A DNA stretch of 63,096 nucleotides, filler included, from Candidatus Woesearchaeota archaeon (lineage in GTDB: Archaea; Nanobdellota; Nanobdellia; Woesearchaeales; DATGWN01): assembly GCA_047603125.1 (NCBI GenBank). It is 9 parts of 9 records of this genome, joined end to end, with 100 filler letters (N's around TTAATTAATTAA, not from the genome) between each part and the next. Parts side by side here need not be neighbours in the genome. Positions count along the whole stretch, not along the records: positions 49,027 to 52,756 come from JBLKOU010000061.1; 8 more parts are not named here. One strand, given 5' to 3'. Under the pieces are notes generated by a model that was not told the origin of the DNA, did no database searches, and saw nothing but the letters and a program-made list of their open reading frames with translations. This document shows, piece after piece, positions 4,835 to 62,954 of this stretch. Numbering within the stretch: position 1 is the stretch's first letter; every line of letters starts with the position of its first letter. A program made the translations under genes and the position numbers.

Positions 4835-5605
4835 CTAAGTGTTCTTACCAGATTCTCTCTCTTTTTTTGAATAGAGTAAAAATCCACCACCAACTAAAAA
4901 TATAAGTGCAAGCAACCCTATTATTGAATAAATCGTAGTCTTTACAAGATTTGAAGATTGCACATCCATGCGTGCTGATGAATCATCCCCATCAGTAATA
5001 TCGTCAGTAAAGTCTTCAGGAGGAACATCAGCAGCGTCATCTCTATCAGGACTCGTATCATCAGAAGTAGGTTCTTGAAGCGGAGAAGGCGATTCTAAAT
5101 CAGTAACTGAACGGTCTACAATTCGAACTTCACCAATATTTCCCGGACCTCTCGTACCAGAGGATGTCGAACTACTACCTTGTTCTTGAACCTTGTCATC
5201 TTTTTCTACAGAACTACCATGAACATCATAATAAAAATAAGCCCAATCGGTATTACTTGTATTAGACGTCACAAATAACAATTTTGTTGTCTCATTGTAG
5301 AGCGACTTATTTATATGCACCCAAATATTTAATTTTGAATCTCTAAACCAAAATCCTTCCGTTGCATCTAGAGTTATATTTTGAAATTCTCGGTCGAGTG
5401 AAGTATGATAAATACTCGCATCAAGCTCTGCAGGAACAGTATAATTACCAAACCAATAGCTCGAGTAAACACTACCGTTCAAAGTAGCTTCCGCGTATTC
5501 ATGAAATGAGTCTAATAATTGAACACCCATAACAACACAAGAACCATCCAAATATTCATACCCAACAGGGCAAACAAACTGACAAGACTCTAAACCTTCA
5601 GGCGA
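4835..5605 (-). CDS. Surface protein, 5'-partial, with acidic Ser/Pro/Asp linker and C-terminal TM anchor
   Basis: Frame open up to the gap; C-terminal hydrophobic helix followed by basic tail. Confidence 0.75.
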   Translation of the reverse strand, partial: SPEGLESCQFVCPVGYEYLDGSCVVMGVQLLDSFHEYAEATLNGSVYSSYWFGNYTVPAELDASIYHTSLDREFQNITLDATEGFWFRDSKLNIWVHINKSLYNETTKLLFVTSNTSNTDWAYFYYDVHGSSVEKDDKVQEQGSSSTSSGTRGPGNIGEVRIVDRSVTDLESPSPLQEPTSDDTSPDRDDAADVPPEDFTDDITDGDDSSARMDVQSSNLVKTTIYSIIGLLALIFLVGGGFLLYSKKERESGKNT

Positions 5606-5607
5606 TT

Positions 5608-5707
5608 NNNNNNNNNNNNNNNNNNNNNNNNNNNNNNNNNNNNNNNNNNNNTTAATTAATTAANNNNNNNNNNNNNNNNNNNNNNNNNNNNNNNNNNNNN
5701 NNNNNNN
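5608..5707. other. Artificial contig linker (also at 11226-11325, 16525-16624, 21390-21489, 48927-49026, 52757-52856, 56399-56498, 59795-59894)
   Basis: N-run, TTAATTAATTAA (stops in all six frames), N-run; 100 nt each. Confidence 0.98.
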
Positions 5708-5766
5708 TTTAATAAAAAATAGCCAACTGTCAAATGAAATTCCCGCACTAAATAGTTGACAAACTG

Positions 5767-6853: not shown

Positions 6854-6983
6854 TCCGCTCACCCGGATTTGAACCGGGAACCTCTCGGGAACTGCTCGCT
6901 GTGTTTTGTATCATTCATGCAATCTTCTTGCATCGTCAACAAACGACCTACAGCCAAGCGCTCTGCCGTTGAGCTATGAGCGG
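6854..6983 (-). tRNA. tRNA-Tyr(GTA) with 58-nt intron (6890-6947) at 37/38
   Basis: C1:G72 and A73; bulge-helix-bulge with CTGT/GCAG helix; TTCAAAT T-loop; TATA at 7009-7016. Confidence 0.95.
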
Positions 6984-7029: not shown

Positions 7030-7163
7030 TAGTCGACGACATTAATTTCGCATAACCCGGCGATTTCACGACAGTTGTCAAGTTTGCAAAATCAGAGCTG
7101 CATGAATCGCTCTGATTTTTGATTTTACGCCAAGGAGTTATGCTTTTCTTTTGCCGCTAACTA
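7030..7163 (-). repeat. Structured repeat subfamily A, short form (134 bp)
   Basis: Reverse complement of 54329-54462; TAGT...ACTA ends. Confidence 0.95.
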
Positions 7164-11092: not shown

Positions 11093-11502
11093 TATATAAC
11101 CCCTTATGAGTACCTGCATACTTTCGATTTAAATACTTTTCTTTTTCCGTGCTGTGTCGGATAAACCGGTAGAAATTCTTTAAAAAAAGTGAAACTATTT
11201 GATTTTAAAGAAAAGGACAGCCTTTNNNNNNNNNNNNNNNNNNNNNNNNNNNNNNNNNNNNNNNNNNNNTTAATTAATTAANNNNNNNNNNNNNNNNNNN
11301 NNNNNNNNNNNNNNNNNNNNNNNNNAAAAAAGCGCTATTTGGCAGTTCAACTCTCATGATATATGAGAAAGCAATGTCATTTATAAATGTTCTTATTTCA
11401 CCCCAGAATCCCGGAGACTCGTTTTTTTACCCGAGAATCCCGGTGTTTTACTTTAGCTTTTAAAACACAAACTACAAAAATCACCTCAAAACTCAACACG
11501 AT

Positions 11503-15340: not shown

Positions 15341-15383
15341 TTCCCGTTTAAGAAAAATGGTAATTATAAAGTTTTTGTAAGAA

Positions 15384-15559
15384 TAGTTAGCAGCAAAAGA
15401 AAAGCATAACTTTTTGGTGCAAAATCAAAAATCAGAGTGATTGTTTGAAAGCTTCTTTCAAACTTGAGGATGAGAATCCGAAAACAAGCAGCTCTGATTT
15501 TGCAAACTTGACAACTGTCGCGAAATCGCCGAGTTATGCGAAATTAATGTCGTCAACTA
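15384..15559 (+). repeat. Structured repeat subfamily A, long form (176 bp, with 42-nt insert)
   Basis: Aligns with 52860-53035 and 54329-54462. Confidence 0.95.
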
Positions 15560-15607
15560 ACATCTAAAAAAGAAACAATCATATATCAGTTGGTATCTAA
15601 TGGTAGC

Positions 15608-16433: not shown

Positions 16434-16524
16434 ATGCGCGAACGATATGATGTAAAACTCAAGTATTACCATCTTCTTGGTGTACTGACAGCCATTGCAC
16501 TTGTCCTCCAACCCTTTTTTGCAG
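16434..16524 (+). CDS. Membrane protein, 3'-partial
   Basis: MRERYDVKLKYYHLLGVLTAIALVLQPFF runs into the gap; TATA at 16403-16410. Confidence 0.55.
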
Positions 16525-16669
16525 NNNNNNNNNNNNNNNNNNNNNNNNNNNNNNNNNNNNNNNNNNNNTTAATTAATTAANNNNNNNNNNNNNNNNNNNN
16601 NNNNNNNNNNNNNNNNNNNNNNNNTAAAGAGCGATAAATATTTAAATGCTTCGGTTTATCTAATTATAT

Positions 16670-17407: not shown

Positions 17408-17550
17408 GAAGACGCAGCTTCATCCAAAAAATAAAAAAAGAGCACCTTGTAGCGAAATCAGAAAATTCAACGATTTATACAGTTGAATTTTCGCATAATT
17501 CTCAAAGCGGGACTCTTGAGCCAAATCTACGTGCTCATCTTTAAAAAACG
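17408..17550 (+). repeat. Structured repeat subfamily B (core 17440-17536)
   Basis: GAGCAC...CTCAAAGCGGGACTCTTGAG...GTGCTC shared with copies at 43.2 kb and 57.8 kb. Confidence 0.92.
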
Positions 17551-20357: not shown

Positions 20358-21389
20358 TCAAGGAGTATAGGTGCAACGAAAGCCATCATCAGAAAGCGAA
20401 CCCCAGAAGCCACCAAATATATCGACCCCTAAAAAACCACCATACATATAATGATTGCTGCCAACTTTTCCAAACCCATCAAATTGAACTAAATCTCCCC
20501 CGAACGCTCCCCCATTTTGAAAATTAAATATAGAGGGTTTTAAATATGGAAAAAAACTCAAAATGTAGTCATAGCAATACTCCGTCAGACCAGTATCAAA
20601 ATTGTCACAATAATCATTACTCAAATCTCCAGGATAAAGAACATAATAATAACCACCAGAAGGACCACTCACACTCGAAACATCAAACTCGATTATATTA
20701 TCCGCATTACCGACCCAATCCCAAATAACTTCACCATTAGAAAGAACAAAAATTCTTTTGTGATCCCGTTGAACAGAGTCCCAAGTATACGACATACCAA
20801 CATATCCTTCGACTCTTAAAGGACAATCATCATTATTTACATGATCTAAGGAAACAGAAAGATCACAATCAGCCGTGCCCGAATCTAAAACTGCCCCGTA
20901 AGCTCCAGACTCATCGACATTACCTCTCGCCAAAAAAATTTCTGGTTGTGAAGAATCTAGATTATTAATAGGTGTATGCAAAATATTTTCATTTATTTGC
21001 ATCCATTGTCTCGACGATAACAATGAATAGCCATTCTGTTCACACAAATCTTTTGCTTGAGATTTCGAATTTTCATTCGGTAATAACCACGGAATACCAT
21101 CCGGTTGTGAAACCGGCACACCCCCAACATTTTTTGCCTCATACTTCATCACACAAAAGTCATCTACAGTCGTCCCATCAGCTAAAACAAATCCACCAGG
21201 AACTGGTACAAAACCAGACGGACACTCAAAAGAAGACGCAGAACCAACGAGTTGCAAATCAGACCCACGCTGTGTTCGTTGTGTATTGGTTTGCACGTTT
21301 GTATAGCGAACTTCAATCGGATAAGAATACGCATCGATTGAAGTAACAGAATTACATTGAACTTGAACAGAAGAACCAGAGCGAAGTTG
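20358..21389 (-). CDS. Surface protein with FGE-sulfatase/C-type-lectin-like domain, 5'-partial
   Basis: CPSGFVPVPG, FCVMKYEAK, DWVGN, terminal GFRC; frame open to the gap. Confidence 0.8.
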   Translation of the reverse strand, partial: QLRSGSSVQVQCNSVTSIDAYSYPIEVRYTNVQTNTQRTQRGSDLQLVGSASSFECPSGFVPVPGGFVLADGTTVDDFCVMKYEAKNVGGVPVSQPDGIPWLLPNENSKSQAKDLCEQNGYSLLSSRQWMQINENILHTPINNLDSSQPEIFLARGNVDESGAYGAVLDSGTADCDLSVSLDHVNNDDCPLRVEGYVGMSYTWDSVQRDHKRIFVLSNGEVIWDWVGNADNIIEFDVSSVSGPSGGYYYVLYPGDLSNDYCDNFDTGLTEYCYDYILSFFPYLKPSIFNFQNGGAFGGDLVQFDGFGKVGSNHYMYGGFLGVDIFGGFWGSLSDDGFRCTYTP

Positions 21390-21489
21390 NNNNNNNNNNN
21401 NNNNNNNNNNNNNNNNNNNNNNNNNNNNNNNNNTTAATTAATTAANNNNNNNNNNNNNNNNNNNNNNNNNNNNNNNNNNNNNNNNNNNN

Positions 21490-24400
21490 AACTCAATAAA
21501 GTCGCGCAAGTCATTGTAGACAACATGGCGCTCAATATTACCTGCAAGTGTCGCATCATTGAGTTTATTAAATGTGAATGGAACATAATCTTGCGGTTTC
21601 TCACTCACAGTCACAGTCACAAGATCCTCAACTGTATGAATGCCATCGCTTGTTGTTATAGTAATCTGTGTTTGCCCTACGCTCACACCTTCACACAGTA
21701 GATGACTACTACTTGCAACGCGACATGTTGCAATAGACGTATCGCCATCAGCAACACTAAATGTCAGAGGATCAGAGTCTGGATCAACAGCAAAATTTTT
21801 CAAATCATAGACAACTCGTTTATCCCCTACCTTTATATTAATATCAGGATAGTTAGTTACCGGAGGTCGATTCTCAATGACTTTCTCAACGAAAACAGTC
21901 ATGCTCTGCGTTTGTTGTGTCTTGCCATCATCTGCACGGATGCTCAGTGTACTTGAACCATCTTCATTGCGATTGACATCACAAACTAAGGAAAATTGTT
22001 CAATAAAACAATGAACCAGGTTTGAATTGGATTGCAAAACCACACTAAATGAAACTGTTTCTTTTGAGCCAAACTCAATAAAGTCGCGCAAGTCATTGTA
22101 GACAACATGGCGCTCAATATTACCTGCAAGTGTCGCATCATTGAGTTTGGAAAAATGAAATGGCGTGTAGCTCTTTTGTACAAAAACAGTGAATGTTCTT
22201 TCAAGCTTTGTTGTTCCATCATCAATTGAAATGGAAAGCTGGCTTTGACCATCCTCGTCTTTTTGCACAAAACAAGTAAATCGACCACCAAATTGTTCAC
22301 AATCAACTAAATCAGTATTTGATTGCGTAAGTGAAAATTCGTATCGTCGATCTCTGTCTGAAACATATGATAAAATATCAGAAATTATTCTGTGCTCAGC
22401 TACGGAACCATCCAGTGTGAAATCTTCAATGGGATCAAATGTGAAGGGAACATAGCCTTGCTCCAAATGAATTCTCATAGAAGCTGTTGCAGAGAGTTTT
22501 CCATCTGTTGCTCGAAAATACAATATTGTTACTCCCGTTTTTCCTTGCGAAACTGAACAACTCAATCTTGTCTGGGAATCAAGAGAACAACTTACTAAAT
22601 CATTTCGAGATTGCGACTCAAGTGTAATTTTGAGTTCATCACCATCAGGATCTGTTACAAAATCACTTATTCGAATAATATTTTCATATAACGAGTGATT
22701 ATTATATAAGACTCTTCCAGGTATTGAAGAAAATACCGGTGGTCGATTAACATCAACTTGCTCTACAAATATTGTAACAGTTTGTGTTGCAGCTTTTGAC
22801 CCATCACTTGCTGTGAAAACTACTTGACTTTGTCCATCTTTATTTTCTTTGACTTCACAACTCAGATATGAGCCAAATAAGGAACATTCAACTAAATCTC
22901 TATTACTTTGGTGTGCAATTCCAAATGTCAATGCATCACCATCTGGATCAGAGGCATAATTATTCAAGTTTAAAATATTTGCATGATGCGTAATATCTCC
23001 TCGTAAGAAAATGTCTGAAATATCCTCAAAAACTGGCGGACGATTAGCATCAAGAACATCTATATCCCAAGTAAAAGATACTGCATCAGTTCCATCTGTT
23101 ACTTCAAATCCAACTGTTGAACTTCCGGTTGTTACAGAAGATAATGCCAACGTTCCGCTTTGTAGATGGTAAATTGAAGTATTTTTTTTATAAATCCACG
23201 CTCCTTTGAAAAAAACATCATAGGCTATGTCAATCCATTCATCTTTTTTGAAAGAATAAAACCAAACTTGTGGATCTTTTTTTCCATGTATATAATACCA
23301 TTTTTCATCTCCCTCCTCAAAAGAAACAGCGTGTTTATTTAAAAAATTTTCAAAAGTCTGTTCATATTCAGGCGGCATAAGAAACCACTGTTGTGAGAGA
23401 ATGTTTGGCAAGTGACAATCGACTTTCCCTAATTGTGTATCAGCAAGCGTACAGTCTACCAGTTGTGAATTTGTTTGAGATGTAATTGTATATGTTAACT
23501 CATCACCATCCGGATCGAAAACATAATTGTCTAAAATGATCGCATTTGGATATTGAGATTGATTATTCAATAATGTTTTTTTTGGAAGTGCGCTTACTAT
23601 TGGCGGCGCATTTGGATCAGGATCGGGATCAACTGTTTTTTCACCCTTCACATAAATTGTTTGAGAAACAGTATCATCTAAATTTGCATCATAAGGGCAC
23701 GTATCTACAACTGCACGCGCACTTATTGAATAATATCCTTTTTGTGTTGGGATGAAACTTGTTTGTGTACGAATAAATTGATCATCTTGAGAATGTTGTG
23801 CAATGTTTTTAACTTCGCTATGAACAACCGCACCGTCTTTTTTTACTGTAAATTCAACTGAAAAGGGTGTTGTTTTTAATTCACCAAATTCATTATAAAA
23901 ATTTGCAAGCGCATCAACATACGCTGTTACTGTTTGACCAACTTCTGGCTCTACAGGGCTTGCATATAAATCTTGAGCAAGGGCATAACACATGTTTGTT
24001 GAACCCTCATTAATAACACTGAATTGTTTGCTCGAGCTATGTTCTTGATAATCAAGACATTTTGCATCAGGGACTTGTGTTCGTACTCTCGCGCTATAGG
24101 CTCCGACTTGTTCAGGAATCCATTCAAATTGTATGTGTTCATATTCAGAATATGGAATCGAAACCACTTTTTCTTGTTGGTCAACGACCGCACCTGTGGA
24201 ATCCAAAATGTCTAAAATAATTTTTGTTTGAACCGAATAATGTGATTGTAATTCATCAGGTATATATTCAATTGGACCTGCATTTTTAATTGCCGCATGT
24301 GCTTTAGAGTCAAGCGCAGTCACGATGTCAACCATTACTGGCTGATTTGGATAAACTGTATTTGTTACAGAAAAAGTATCTATGGGCGAACGACACATAT

Positions 24401-43133: not shown

Positions 43134-43278
43134 GAAGACGCACAGGTTTGAAAAATAAGAAAGAAGAGCACCTTGCAGCAAAATCAGAAAATTTGGTGAT
43201 TCTTGCAACCAAATTTTTGCAAGATACTCAAAGCGGGACTCTTGAGCCAAATCTGCGTGCTCTTTTTTGAAAAACAAT
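43134..43278 (+). repeat. Structured repeat subfamily B (core 43161-43267)
   Basis: Aligns to 17408-17550 and 57797-57930. Confidence 0.92.
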
Positions 43279-48584: not shown

Positions 48585-48925
48585 TTATCTAAAAGAATAT
48601 TTTGAACTTCCTTAATTGTTTTTACCATTTTGTGAAGAGTTTTTTTCACTACAATGTCATCCATTTCTTTCCCATAGTAAATAAGAGAATTTCTTTTATA
48701 TCTAAAATCATCAAATAATTGAAATAGGCTAACATCCTTTAAAACGTCTCTTATGTAGTATCCTATACATATATGATTTTCAACTTTAAACCCGTCAAGA
48801 AGTAGTTTTGCATGTAATAATTCAATTAGCGAGCTATAATATCCTTCAAATACATAATTTAAAAACCTCTCATCCTTATTTGTCTCTAAGAAACTGATTC
48901 TATTACTCGCTGTTTTTTCTAAATT
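48581..48925 (-). CDS. HEPN-domain protein, 5'-partial
   Basis: Absent from the ORF track; hand translation ...FEGYYSSLIELLHA..DGFKVENHIC...FDDFRYKRNSLIYYG; stop overlaps the GT4 ATG. Confidence 0.75.
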   Translation of the reverse strand, partial: NLEKTASNRISFLETNKDERFLNYVFEGYYSSLIELLHAKLLLDGFKVENHICIGYYIRDVLKDVSLFQLFDDFRYKRNSLIYYGKEMDDIVVKKTLHKMVKTIKEVQNILLDK

Positions 48926-49049
48926 CNNNNNNNNNNNNNNNNNNNNNNNNNNNNNNNNNNNNNNNNNNNNTTAATTAATTAANNNNNNNNNNNNNNNNNN
49001 NNNNNNNNNNNNNNNNNNNNNNNNNNTAAAACTATCTGAAAATGATTTT

Positions 49050-52495: not shown

Positions 52496-52677
52496 AGTAT
52501 CTCCGAATAGACGTACCTAAACTGTACAAGCACTTATGCCTTGAAGCGAAATCACAAAATTAGCCGACTGTCTGCAGGCTAATTTTGGCGTATATCTCAC
52601 CGGGAAGGTTGAAAGTAACGTCTTCAACCTTGAAGACTTTAGTCTGAAAAGCTGGGATGAAATCTTCGCATAAGTGC
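52496..52677 (+). repeat. Structured repeat subfamily E, long form (44-nt insert at 52607-52650)
   Basis: Aligns to the reverse complement of 16251-16387. Confidence 0.92.
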
Positions 52678-52859
52678 AAAAGAAGAGAGAATCTTCTGCT
52701 CTGCATCGCTTATTGGAGCACCAAACAACGGCTTTGATTTCTTCCATTTTTCTAATNNNNNNNNNNNNNNNNNNNNNNNNNNNNNNNNNNNNNNNNNNNN
52801 TTAATTAATTAANNNNNNNNNNNNNNNNNNNNNNNNNNNNNNNNNNNNNNNNNNNNATT

Positions 52860-53035
52860 TAGTTAGCGGTAAAAGAAAAGCATAACTCCTTGGCGTGAAA
52901 CCAAAAATCAGAGTGATTGTTTGAAAGCCTCTTTCAAACTTGAGGATGAGAATCTGAAAACATGCAGCTCTGATTTTGCAAACTTGACAACTGTCGTGAA
53001 ATCGCCGAGTTATGCGAAATTAATGCCGTCGACTA
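52860..53035 (+). repeat. Structured repeat subfamily A, long form
   Basis: Aligns to 15384-15559. Confidence 0.95.
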
Positions 53036-54308: not shown

Positions 54309-54328
54309 ATTCTTTTTTTTCTTACATG

Positions 54329-54462
54329 TAGTTAGCGGCAAAAGAAAAGCATAACTCCTTGGCGTAAAATCAAAAATCAGAGCGATTCATGCAGCTCTGA
54401 TTTTGCAAACTTGACAACTGTCGTGAAATCGCCGGGTTATGCGAAATTAATGTCGTCGACTA
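54329..54462 (+). repeat. Structured repeat subfamily A, short form
   Basis: Reverse complement of 7030-7163. Confidence 0.95.
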
Positions 54463-54508
54463 ATGAGTCGTTAGGTTTATATACGATTGACGTGTTCAAG
54501 GTAGTATA

Positions 54509-55917: not shown

Positions 55918-56398
55918 ATGCATCAATTAAGGATTGAAAATTGGTCAAATGAAATAGCATCTCAAGGATTGGAGCAGTTTATTCAGACTCGATGTACGCG
56001 AATTAGAAAATCGTGTGCGCAGTTTCAATTTTATGCAGATATGCTCTTTGTTACGTATCAAGAACTAAAAGACGAAGAATCTGAATACTTGCATCATTTG
56101 CCTACGCTTTTTTCAACGGAACATGAGGATTTTTATAATCCTGAATTAGTTGAGAAATTGCAGACGCGTTATTCTCAATCACAACTAGATTTAATTGCTT
56201 TGTCCTGGACAAAACGGTTTGATGTTTCTCGCTCATTTTTGTATTTAACAAGATCTGCTCGGGCATATGAAGTAAGTGTTCGTTTATTTGATCAGTCTTG
56301 GAATGGTTTTTTAGATGTGATTGGAAATAAATTAACGAATCGGGGAGAGTATATGCGTCACAAATGGAAAACTCGAAGAGGGTGGATTAAAGTTAGTG
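55918..56398 (+). CDS. Hypothetical protein, 3'-partial
   Basis: ORF runs into the gap. Confidence 0.6.
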
Positions 56399-56571
56399 NN
56401 NNNNNNNNNNNNNNNNNNNNNNNNNNNNNNNNNNNNNNNNNNTTAATTAATTAANNNNNNNNNNNNNNNNNNNNNNNNNNNNNNNNNNNNNNNNNNNNTG
56501 CTCTTTTTTATTTTTTAAATCAGCTCTAGAATCTGATAATTTTATAAACTCACCTTACTTGGCTAGTTTCT

Positions 56572-59672: not shown

Positions 59673-59894
59673 TTTTTCTGGTTTATTTCGCAGAGTAGTT
59701 TTCTGTAACCATAATTTAGTACGTAAAAAGTTAGGTTTTTACCATTCTTAGATTTTGAAAGATATTTTTCCCTTGTAATTTCCAAGTATGTATTNNNNNN
59801 NNNNNNNNNNNNNNNNNNNNNNNNNNNNNNNNNNNNNNTTAATTAATTAANNNNNNNNNNNNNNNNNNNNNNNNNNNNNNNNNNNNNNNNNNNN

Positions 59895-60159
59895 AAGAAG
59901 AGAGAATCTTCTGCTCTGCATCGCTTATTGGAGCACCAAACAACGGCTTTGATTTCTTCCATTTTTCTAATAAATCTTGTAAAGAGGTTTTGGAATACGC
60001 AAGAGTATCAAGATATAAATCAAAAGTCATATCTTTATCAAATTCAAGTATATCTACCAGATTTAGATGCTATTCATTGGCATCTGAATGTGATGCCATA
60101 TTCTTCGGATAATTTTTTTTAGAAGCAATTTCTGAGAGGTATTGATATAAGTGTTTCAT
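59895..60159 (-). pseudogene. Probable gene remnant with in-frame TAG (60070-60072)
   Basis: ATG at 60159, TAG after 29 codons, then continues in frame (HLNLVDILEFDKDMTFDL...) into the contig end. Confidence 0.4.
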
Positions 60160-62854: not shown

Positions 62855-62954
62855 TTGCTACTGCACGGCGATTTCACGACAGCTGTCTTTTCTGCGTCGA
62901 AGCACCTGCATGAATCGGCACTTCTCCTGATTTTACGCCAAGGTGCAGTAGCAA
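62855..62954 (-). repeat. Structured repeat subfamily D (diverged relative of A)
   Basis: 12-bp closing stem TTGCTACTGCAC/GTGCAGTAGCAA; shares CTTGGCGTAAAATC, GATTCATGCA and GTCGTGAAATCGCC with A. Confidence 0.88.

Follow-up and report, generated by a model that had tools for sequence, protein, structure and literature searches.

Folded repeat elements of a woesearchaeal genome carry about fifty still smaller inserts, double-hairpin modules of 42-52 nt, for which the site is the apical loop of the hairpin P3, with YGATT on the 5' side and NATGCA on the 3' side; one module (module E) occupies the loop of P4 instead. The modules stand in a fixed orientation, are not accompanied by a target duplication, and have conserved stems with variation confined to their loops. 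Their inserted state is derived, they are spread across host families, and their sequences are lineage-specific. We tentatively favour, at somewhat less than even confidence, a loop-targeted copy-in on single-stranded DNA, after which the modules would hitch-hike on the host element.

The window (the whole stretch of DNA analysed, 63,096 nt) comes from the assembly of a Candidatus Woesearchaeota archaeon (1.116 Mb, 36% G+C, 70 contigs) and consists of nine contigs (C40, C41, C42, C44, C47, C48, C52, C56 and C58) joined by N...TTAATTAATTAA...N linkers. It is the nested repeats that fragment the assembly, and contig C52 opens with a long A copy.

Host cores and the modules in their loops

Alignment of 20 empty cores from eight families gave one architecture, in which a 10-bp closing helix (P1) is followed by a CTT bulge, a 4-bp P2, the P3 hairpin with its loop GATT-NATGCA, and a variable P4 hairpin. 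Compensatory changes were found in 20 of the 23 predicted core pairs (20 cores, 8 families), and the loop GATT-NATGCA and the stretch CCTTG are invariant. The covariance model built from this 20-core alignment located 105 cores in the genome, and cores also in six of the nine other genomes of the family; no Rfam family matched the host elements at gathering or E-value thresholds. The cores, modules and joins of the window are:

15402-15540, plus strand: long A host core (C42:4077-4215), whole repeat 15381-15561
15443-15484, plus strand: module A, 42 nt, in the P3 loop of this long A host, with GATT and CAAGCA on either side
52878-53016, plus strand: second long A host core, at the start of contig C52 (C52:22-160)
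52919-52960, plus strand: second window copy of module A, 42 nt, flanked by GATT and CATGCA, 95% identical to the first
54347-54443, plus strand: short A host core, empty and contiguous across GATT/CATGCA (C52:1491-1587), whole repeat 54326-54464
7049-7145, minus strand: another short A host core, empty site (C41:1342-1438)
17435-17540, plus strand: F1 host core, empty GATT/TATACA (C44:811-916)
43161-43266, plus strand: F1 host core, empty GATT/CTTGCA (C47:21672-21777)
62857-62953, minus strand: F4 host core, empty GATT/CATGCA (C58:2963-3059)
52530-52677, plus strand: long E host core, from the P1 5' strand GCACTTATGC to the P1 3' strand GCATAAGTGC (hit of model R1, C48:3508-3647)
52607-52650, plus strand: module E, 44 nt, a 7-bp hairpin with a 9-nt loop, TTGA, a 4-bp hairpin with a TTTA loop, and GAAAA
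16250-16354, minus strand: short E host core, empty P4 loop CCGGGAAGCTGGG (C42:4925-5029)
5593-5716, 11211-11334, 16510-16633, 21375-21498, 48912-49035, 52742-52865, 56384-56507 and 59780-59903: artificial joins

Several features of the cores and their surroundings were observed in passing. The top three or four base pairs of P3 are hypervariable in F1 and mostly compensated (for example, at 17435-17540 and 43161-43266), so that 46 copies with about 85% identity elsewhere display 12 different P3 5' stem types. In core C25:7907-7982 a deletion between two TGCAG repeats has removed the 5' half of P3, and core C53:21050-21176 has an extra hairpin of about 30 nt between P2 and P3. About 70 nt from a short A element, an Rfam tRNA match (6854-6983, minus strand; 130 nt, 51.5 bits) received no call from ARAGORN and is probably an archaeal tRNA gene with an intron. 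At 2041-2529 a 75-nt unit stands five times in tandem, the copies being 66-83% alike.

Module A consists of a 9-bp hairpin, TTGA, a 4-bp hairpin and GAAAA, and in the two window copies reads GTTTGAAAG-loop-CTTTCAAAC, TTGA, GGAT-loop-ATCY, GAAAA; its two ends, GTTTG... and ...GAAAA, do not form an inverted repeat. BLAST recovered 44 distinct copies genome-wide. The sequence pattern matched 40 times in the genome compared with none for the reversed control pattern, and a scan with the grammar alone returned 43 genome hits compared with 3, 0 and 3 in three shuffled genomes. Every one of the 44 copies lies in the P3 apical loop of a folded repeat core, and all 39 filled A copies have the same orientation relative to the host. 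Among the 43 copies matched by regular expression, the 5' flank is GATT in 39, GCTT in two and AATT in two, and the 3' flank carries TGCA, TGTA or TACA in 36. GATT occurs 13,421 times in the genome, counting both strands, and none of the approximately 13,300 sites outside cores is used by module A. At two of the copies (C1:50830 and C10:8708) another inserted element replaces the 3' part of the host, beside or in the P3 loop that holds module A, and the P3 loop looks like a general landing spot for repeat elements.

Module E occurs once in the genome, where it fills the P4 loop of the long E host and lacks any donor; the P3 loop of the same host is empty (GACTGTCTGCAG). Comparison with the short E copy gives a clean 44-nt indel in the P4 loop with a 2-nt AA ambiguity at its border, and the flanks, GGGAA|GC, are unlike those of module A. 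Modules A and E have a common grammar and differ at three compensatory pairs. Contig C48 ends 106 bases beyond the module. A 44-nt skip at 52604-52649, seen in Logan contigs, is the paralogous short E copy, whose C42 flanks match the loose ends, and was ruled out as a polymorphism on that ground. The 77 bases that end C48 recur unchanged as the start of C58 (52680-52756 and 59895-59971), an assembly-graph overlap, so the long E element probably continues into C58.

The sequence-only reading of this DNA had proposed that module A is inserted in the P3 loop after GATT and module E in the P4 loop, with one grammar and covarying stems, and that empty-site copies are present in the window. The counts and indel given above agree with these proposals, as do the three compensatory pairs and the short A repeat at 54326-54464, which runs continuously across GATT/CATGCA; the proposed genome-wide search also recovered further copies, though of A and not of the single-copy E. 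Its idea that the modules enter different sites stands for E, which chose another loop, and fails within A, all copies of which share one loop position.

Two further modules use the same loop. Module B (52 nt) occupies the site GATT|(C/T)ATGCA in a seventh host family, with three filled and three empty copies, and has two 9-bp hairpins, both perfect, together with an ATC linker and a GTTT tail. Its copies lie outside the window:

C25:20858-20909: module B
C3:620-671, minus strand: module B
C55:10189-10240: module B, with the loop of the second hairpin inverted

Module C, a double hairpin of about 50 nt unrelated to A, is found at the same GATT loop site in a genome of another genus (G004), as eight in-core copies in four host families (L092-L097, L108 and L109) with matching empties (L098, L100 and L102). 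Two module-C-like double hairpins lie outside cores, in unrelated surroundings (L110, G004:C30; L111, G003:C25). Modules A, B and C are all pairs of perfect hairpins with unrelated end sequences, and the set A, E, B and C begins with GTTTG, GGTTG, GTTGA or CAYG.

Sequence variation in module A is concentrated in its loops. In the 36 copies that are 42 nt long, departures from the consensus number 11, 9 and 19 at loop positions 11, 31 and 32, respectively, and no other position has more than three. The second loop is mostly GNRA-like (GAGA, GAAA, GGGA, GGAA and GTGA), with GATA in 3 of the 36. Stem changes include sense-strand G-T wobbles in nine copies at five positions, compared with one or two true mismatches, and in the copy on C60 the hairpin loop is inverted in place (CTT to AAG). 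Predicted folds of cores with the module retain P3 and add two independent hairpins. The loop-confined variation and the wobbles point to selection on a fold of one strand, which may be single-stranded DNA or RNA.

If that strand were RNA, the modules could act as facultative peripheral domains of a functional RNA transcribed from the core, retained because the RNA performs better, or differently, when it has them, and moved between copies by recombination. The strong covariation of the core (20 of 23 pairs compensated, eight families), the restriction of variation to positions 11, 31 and 32, the mostly GNRA-like second loop and the G-U-compatible stem changes on the sense strand are all in line with such a role. 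We nevertheless consider it improbable: the elements have no Rfam match, modules A, B and C have no common motif and so no apparent common RNA function, about half of the cores do without a module, the GATA loops break the GNRA pattern, and hairpins of single-stranded DNA would produce the same variation.

Filled and empty forms and the spread of module A

Pairing of flank BLAST hits identified filled and empty hosts of module A. There are 83 such hosts in six families (39 filled and 44 empty), and each family contains both states:

F1: 25 filled, 21 empty
F2: 6 filled, 2 empty
Family A: 3 filled, 17 empty
F4: 3 filled, 2 empty
F5: 1 filled, 1 empty
F4b: 1 filled, 1 empty

No target duplication is present in exact filled/empty pairs. 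In F2, A and F4b the flanking bases are identical in the filled and empty forms; the borders of the insert are thus exact and no duplication accompanies it. The earlier proposal of insertion without duplication is borne out by pairs in six families for module A, one for B and four for C, and comparison of filled with empty sites gives the target consensus, YGATT followed by NATGCA in the P3 loop.

Module identity is nearly constant across these families, at 93.4% between families (420 pairs, 24 of them identical) and 93.7% within them (321 pairs), while the host flanks diverge, with 56.6% identity between families (maximum 72%) and 85.3% within. Since the modules stay alike as their flanks diverge, module A has spread horizontally between host families, and the suggestion that a very small unit nests in larger repeats (93% alike in flanks 57% alike) is supported. 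In the F1 host tree, which has no well-supported branch, the filled state is unclustered, with 15 changes compared with a shuffled mean of 15.4; a single origin of the filled state within F1 would still be compatible with this poorly supported tree. Six of the 12 P3 stem types occur in both filled and empty states. Perfect P3 stems are present in 11 of 25 filled and 13 of 21 empty copies, which gives filled copies no clear excess of mismatches, and no conversion tract is therefore visible. In Logan contigs covering 20 kb of C39, none of three filled sites showed a 42-nt skip.

Related genomes carry the empty state. In short cores read from G002, G004, G006 and G007, the P3 loop is empty in 10 of 10, and E-like cores from the same four genomes have the empty P4 loop CCGGGAAGCTGG in 3 of 3. 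Module A is absent from nine genomes of the family and from 300 genomes of the order, and its pattern gave no hits in JGI metagenome contigs and viral contigs. The grammar pattern gave 43 single hits in a genome contig collection, of which L026 and L017 look coding and the others were judged from their titles to be chance matches. On the empty loops of relatives and the absence of module A from related genomes, we take the empty state to be ancestral and the modules to be recent, derived insertions.

The reverse polarity, in which long forms are ancestral and short forms arose by precise deletion of an internal segment, is by comparison very improbable. Deletions between short repeats do occur in cores, as between the TGCAG repeats of C25:7907-7982, and the C55 copy of module A has GTTTG on both sides, which could serve such a deletion. 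Most module A copies, however, have no direct repeats at their borders. No part of the core is better conserved than the empty loop GATT-NATGCA, both within the genome and in four other genomes, module A is missing from all 309 related genomes, and modules 93% alike sit in families whose flanks are only 57% alike. With the loops empty in the cores of relatives as well, the long forms are not ancestral.

Routes of insertion

The route that we tentatively favour is a copy-in on the folded single strand of a host core, in which template switching would be anchored on the few conserved bases of the loop and would require no transposase of the module's own. The copying route between cores would be template switching or short-patch conversion, the event would take place on folded single-stranded DNA, and new module sequences would originate on the spot, for instance through fold-back synthesis at the loop. 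The modules would then multiply passively whenever the host element is copied. In-place inversion of a hairpin loop is a classic mark of template switching in quasi-palindromes, and the modules themselves bear this signature in the inverted loops of the C60 copy of A and the C55 copy of B. Copy-in is favoured because no enzyme tracks the modules, because they are confined to cores that share the loop, and because of these loop inversions.

Three observations are weak points of this route. Cross-family template switching would rest on only four to six shared bases per side; module E lies in another loop with other flanks and has no genomic donor; and the two solo C-like double hairpins outside cores are not predicted by homology-anchored copying. 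Moreover, the 70-contig assembly breaks at repeats, and an enzyme gene may lie in unassembled sequence. Given module E without a donor, the solo copies and the short anchors, enzyme-driven single-strand insertion stays the main rival to copy-in.

A related reading, which we regard as unlikely, makes the modules loop-homing mini-elements: a structure-specific activity that nicks and joins single strands would place 42-52-nt double hairpins after YGATT, the core would be a landing pad, and a new module would arise in each lineage. The modules would then be the smallest site-specific mobile DNA so far seen in a cellular genome.

The rival itself, a modified form of what the sequence-only reading had put forward, invokes an HUH-type (Y1 or Rep-like) endonuclease that acts in trans, nicks the folded P3 loop after YGATT and joins a single-stranded module circle. 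Several features recall such enzymes: insertion without duplication 3' of a conserved tetranucleotide, always in the same orientation; a hairpin at either end of the module; and a target displayed in a hairpin loop, the kind of place where rolling-circle origins are nicked. Because a duplex circle of 42 bp would be physically implausible, an excised intermediate would need to be single-stranded; the G-T wobbles in nine copies compared with one or two mismatches suggest one functional strand; and the placement of module E in another loop, together with the two solo copies, fits true transposition better than homology copying. The genome also holds a remnant IS200-type TnpA, its only Y1_Tnp match, whose N-terminal part (HVHLFV) and C-terminal part (catalytic-Tyr region) are about 210 nt apart with A+T-rich DNA between them:

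C25:38117-38290 (minus strand) and about 210 bases downstream (L001 1148-1653): split IS200-type TnpA

The distribution and architecture of the candidates argue against this mechanism. The Y1_Tnp gene is broken in the genome (G000) and none was found in the module-C genome (G004); intact genes occur in G001, which has no cores, and in G008, which has two. No TnpB was found, and searches with Rep_1 and Viral_Rep came back empty, with control genomes equally silent. In IS608, left cleavage falls 19 nt and right cleavage 10 nt away from the foot of the hairpin, and a guide of 4 nt precedes each foot on its 5' side (PMC3201880). In the modules, the left hairpin starts at base 1 and leaves no room for an IS608-type guide and spacer, just 5 nt follow the second hairpin at the right end, and the palindromic stems are perfect. 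No end sequence is common to modules A, B and C, none of the approximately 13,300 GATT sites outside cores has been used, and the assembly contains no abutted-end junction of the kind expected of a circle or tandem. IS200/IS605 elements pass through such a single-strand circle and favour the lagging-strand template. For these reasons the HUH (Y1) mechanism proposed earlier does not hold up well, and we now judge it unlikely.

The single IS110-family (DEDD) transposase of the genome, an intact gene of 337 amino acids (C64:126-1139, L071), was weighed as another possible mobiliser. IS110-family enzymes insert without duplication into hairpin-type repeats and target REP and attC hairpins. Their known intermediates, however, are duplex circles, which cannot be 42 bp; the gene is absent from G004 and G003, where module C is found, and from all nine other genomes of the family; and comparison of the gene end with module A yields only a 9-nt match at chance level. 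We find this source hardly credible. The gene is followed by a G+C-richer non-coding stretch, a candidate guide RNA.

Other readings were tried and rejected. Archaeal introns have a bulge-helix-bulge (BHB) motif of 3-4-3 geometry that spans both junctions. A splicing endonuclease gene is present in the genome, but a 3-4-3 BHB can form at none of the 39 filled sites in either of two mirror geometries, and an archaeal BHB intron was rejected on this count. No RVT_1 match to a reverse transcriptase was found. A K-turn or hammerhead-like reading of TTGA-hairpin-GAAAA was dismissed by eye, with the CUGA core missing and modules B and C lacking the motif. A classical DDE-derived MITE does not fit, as the module has neither terminal inverted repeats nor a target-site duplication. 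The integron attC consensus comprises the core pair GTTRRRY/RYYYAAC, extrahelical bases and recombination at G|TT; only the first hairpin of module B reads GTTGAAC...GTTCAAC, with A, C and E not doing so, and exchange at G|TT would predict junctions other than those observed. REP sequences are short palindromes tagged GTAG or CGTC at one end and accompanied by a RAYT gene (PMC3733652); a REP/RAYT origin was rejected, since the module ends carry neither tag and the genome has no intact Y1 gene.

The modules form a second layer of parasitism inside the miniature repeats that fill tiny DPANN genomes, and they probably propagate as parasites on a parasite. This layer is confined to one loop of 10 bases that is at the same time the best conserved piece of the host, and the loop is a concrete target for finding a protein or process that acts on cores. 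The filled/empty pairs amount to a natural assay for insertion without duplication and without a known transposase, and, owing to the strict site rule and the lineage-specific modules, the mechanism can be put to the test.

Comparison with known systems

Archaeal tRNA introns pose the same open problem, as do mitochondrial hairpin elements. Transposition of tRNA introns involves near-identical small inserts in divergent hosts and a route thought to act at the DNA level (PMC4090602). These introns resemble the modules in being archaeal, tens of bases long, and placed at precise positions in structured hosts without duplication. They differ in being bounded by BHB motifs and spliced from tRNA, whereas the hosts of the modules are repeat elements and not tRNA genes.

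IS200/IS605 elements, their PATE derivatives and REP/RAYT share with the modules the absence of a duplication, strand- and orientation-specific insertion 3' of a fixed tetranucleotide, and hairpins near both ends. Unlike these elements, the modules are without a working Y1 and without guide and spacer geometry, and their hairpins are perfect palindromes instead of imperfect ones. They also use one specific loop rather than any tetranucleotide, and at 42-52 nt are far smaller.

ERIC/IRU long forms, BIMEs, BOX and Correia variants are palindromic repeats with an optional block at a fixed site, and, like the module hosts, they have long and short forms that differ by an internal block. Such blocks are not known to move between unrelated families. 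The modules differ in that the same module occurs in six families and different modules occupy one site.

Mitochondrial elements are, with archaeal tRNA introns and single-strand HUH elements, the closest parallels, although by the comparisons made here the modules belong to none of these systems. Yeast mitochondrial GC42 is 42 nt long and makes an AG target-site duplication (PMC4478555). GC clusters and mitochondrial double-hairpin elements resemble the modules as tiny non-coding hairpins with filled and empty sites and no enzyme of their own, and differ from them in being organellar, in having dispersed sites, and in sharing no sequence relation. The mitochondrial double-hairpin elements are said to have been described by Paquin et al. 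in 2000, and sponge RHEs are likewise tiny, non-coding, hairpin-forming elements known from filled and empty sites. The modules agree with the description of double-hairpin elements and GC clusters in being shorter than 80 nt, in folding into hairpins and in having filled and empty sites, a likeness of kind only. Literature searches on MITEs with DPANN or Woesearchaeota and on double-hairpin elements turned up no account of such nested modules in archaea. The modules are tiny, hairpin-forming, non-autonomous inserts of a known kind, in which the strict site rule and the lineage-specific versions are unusual.
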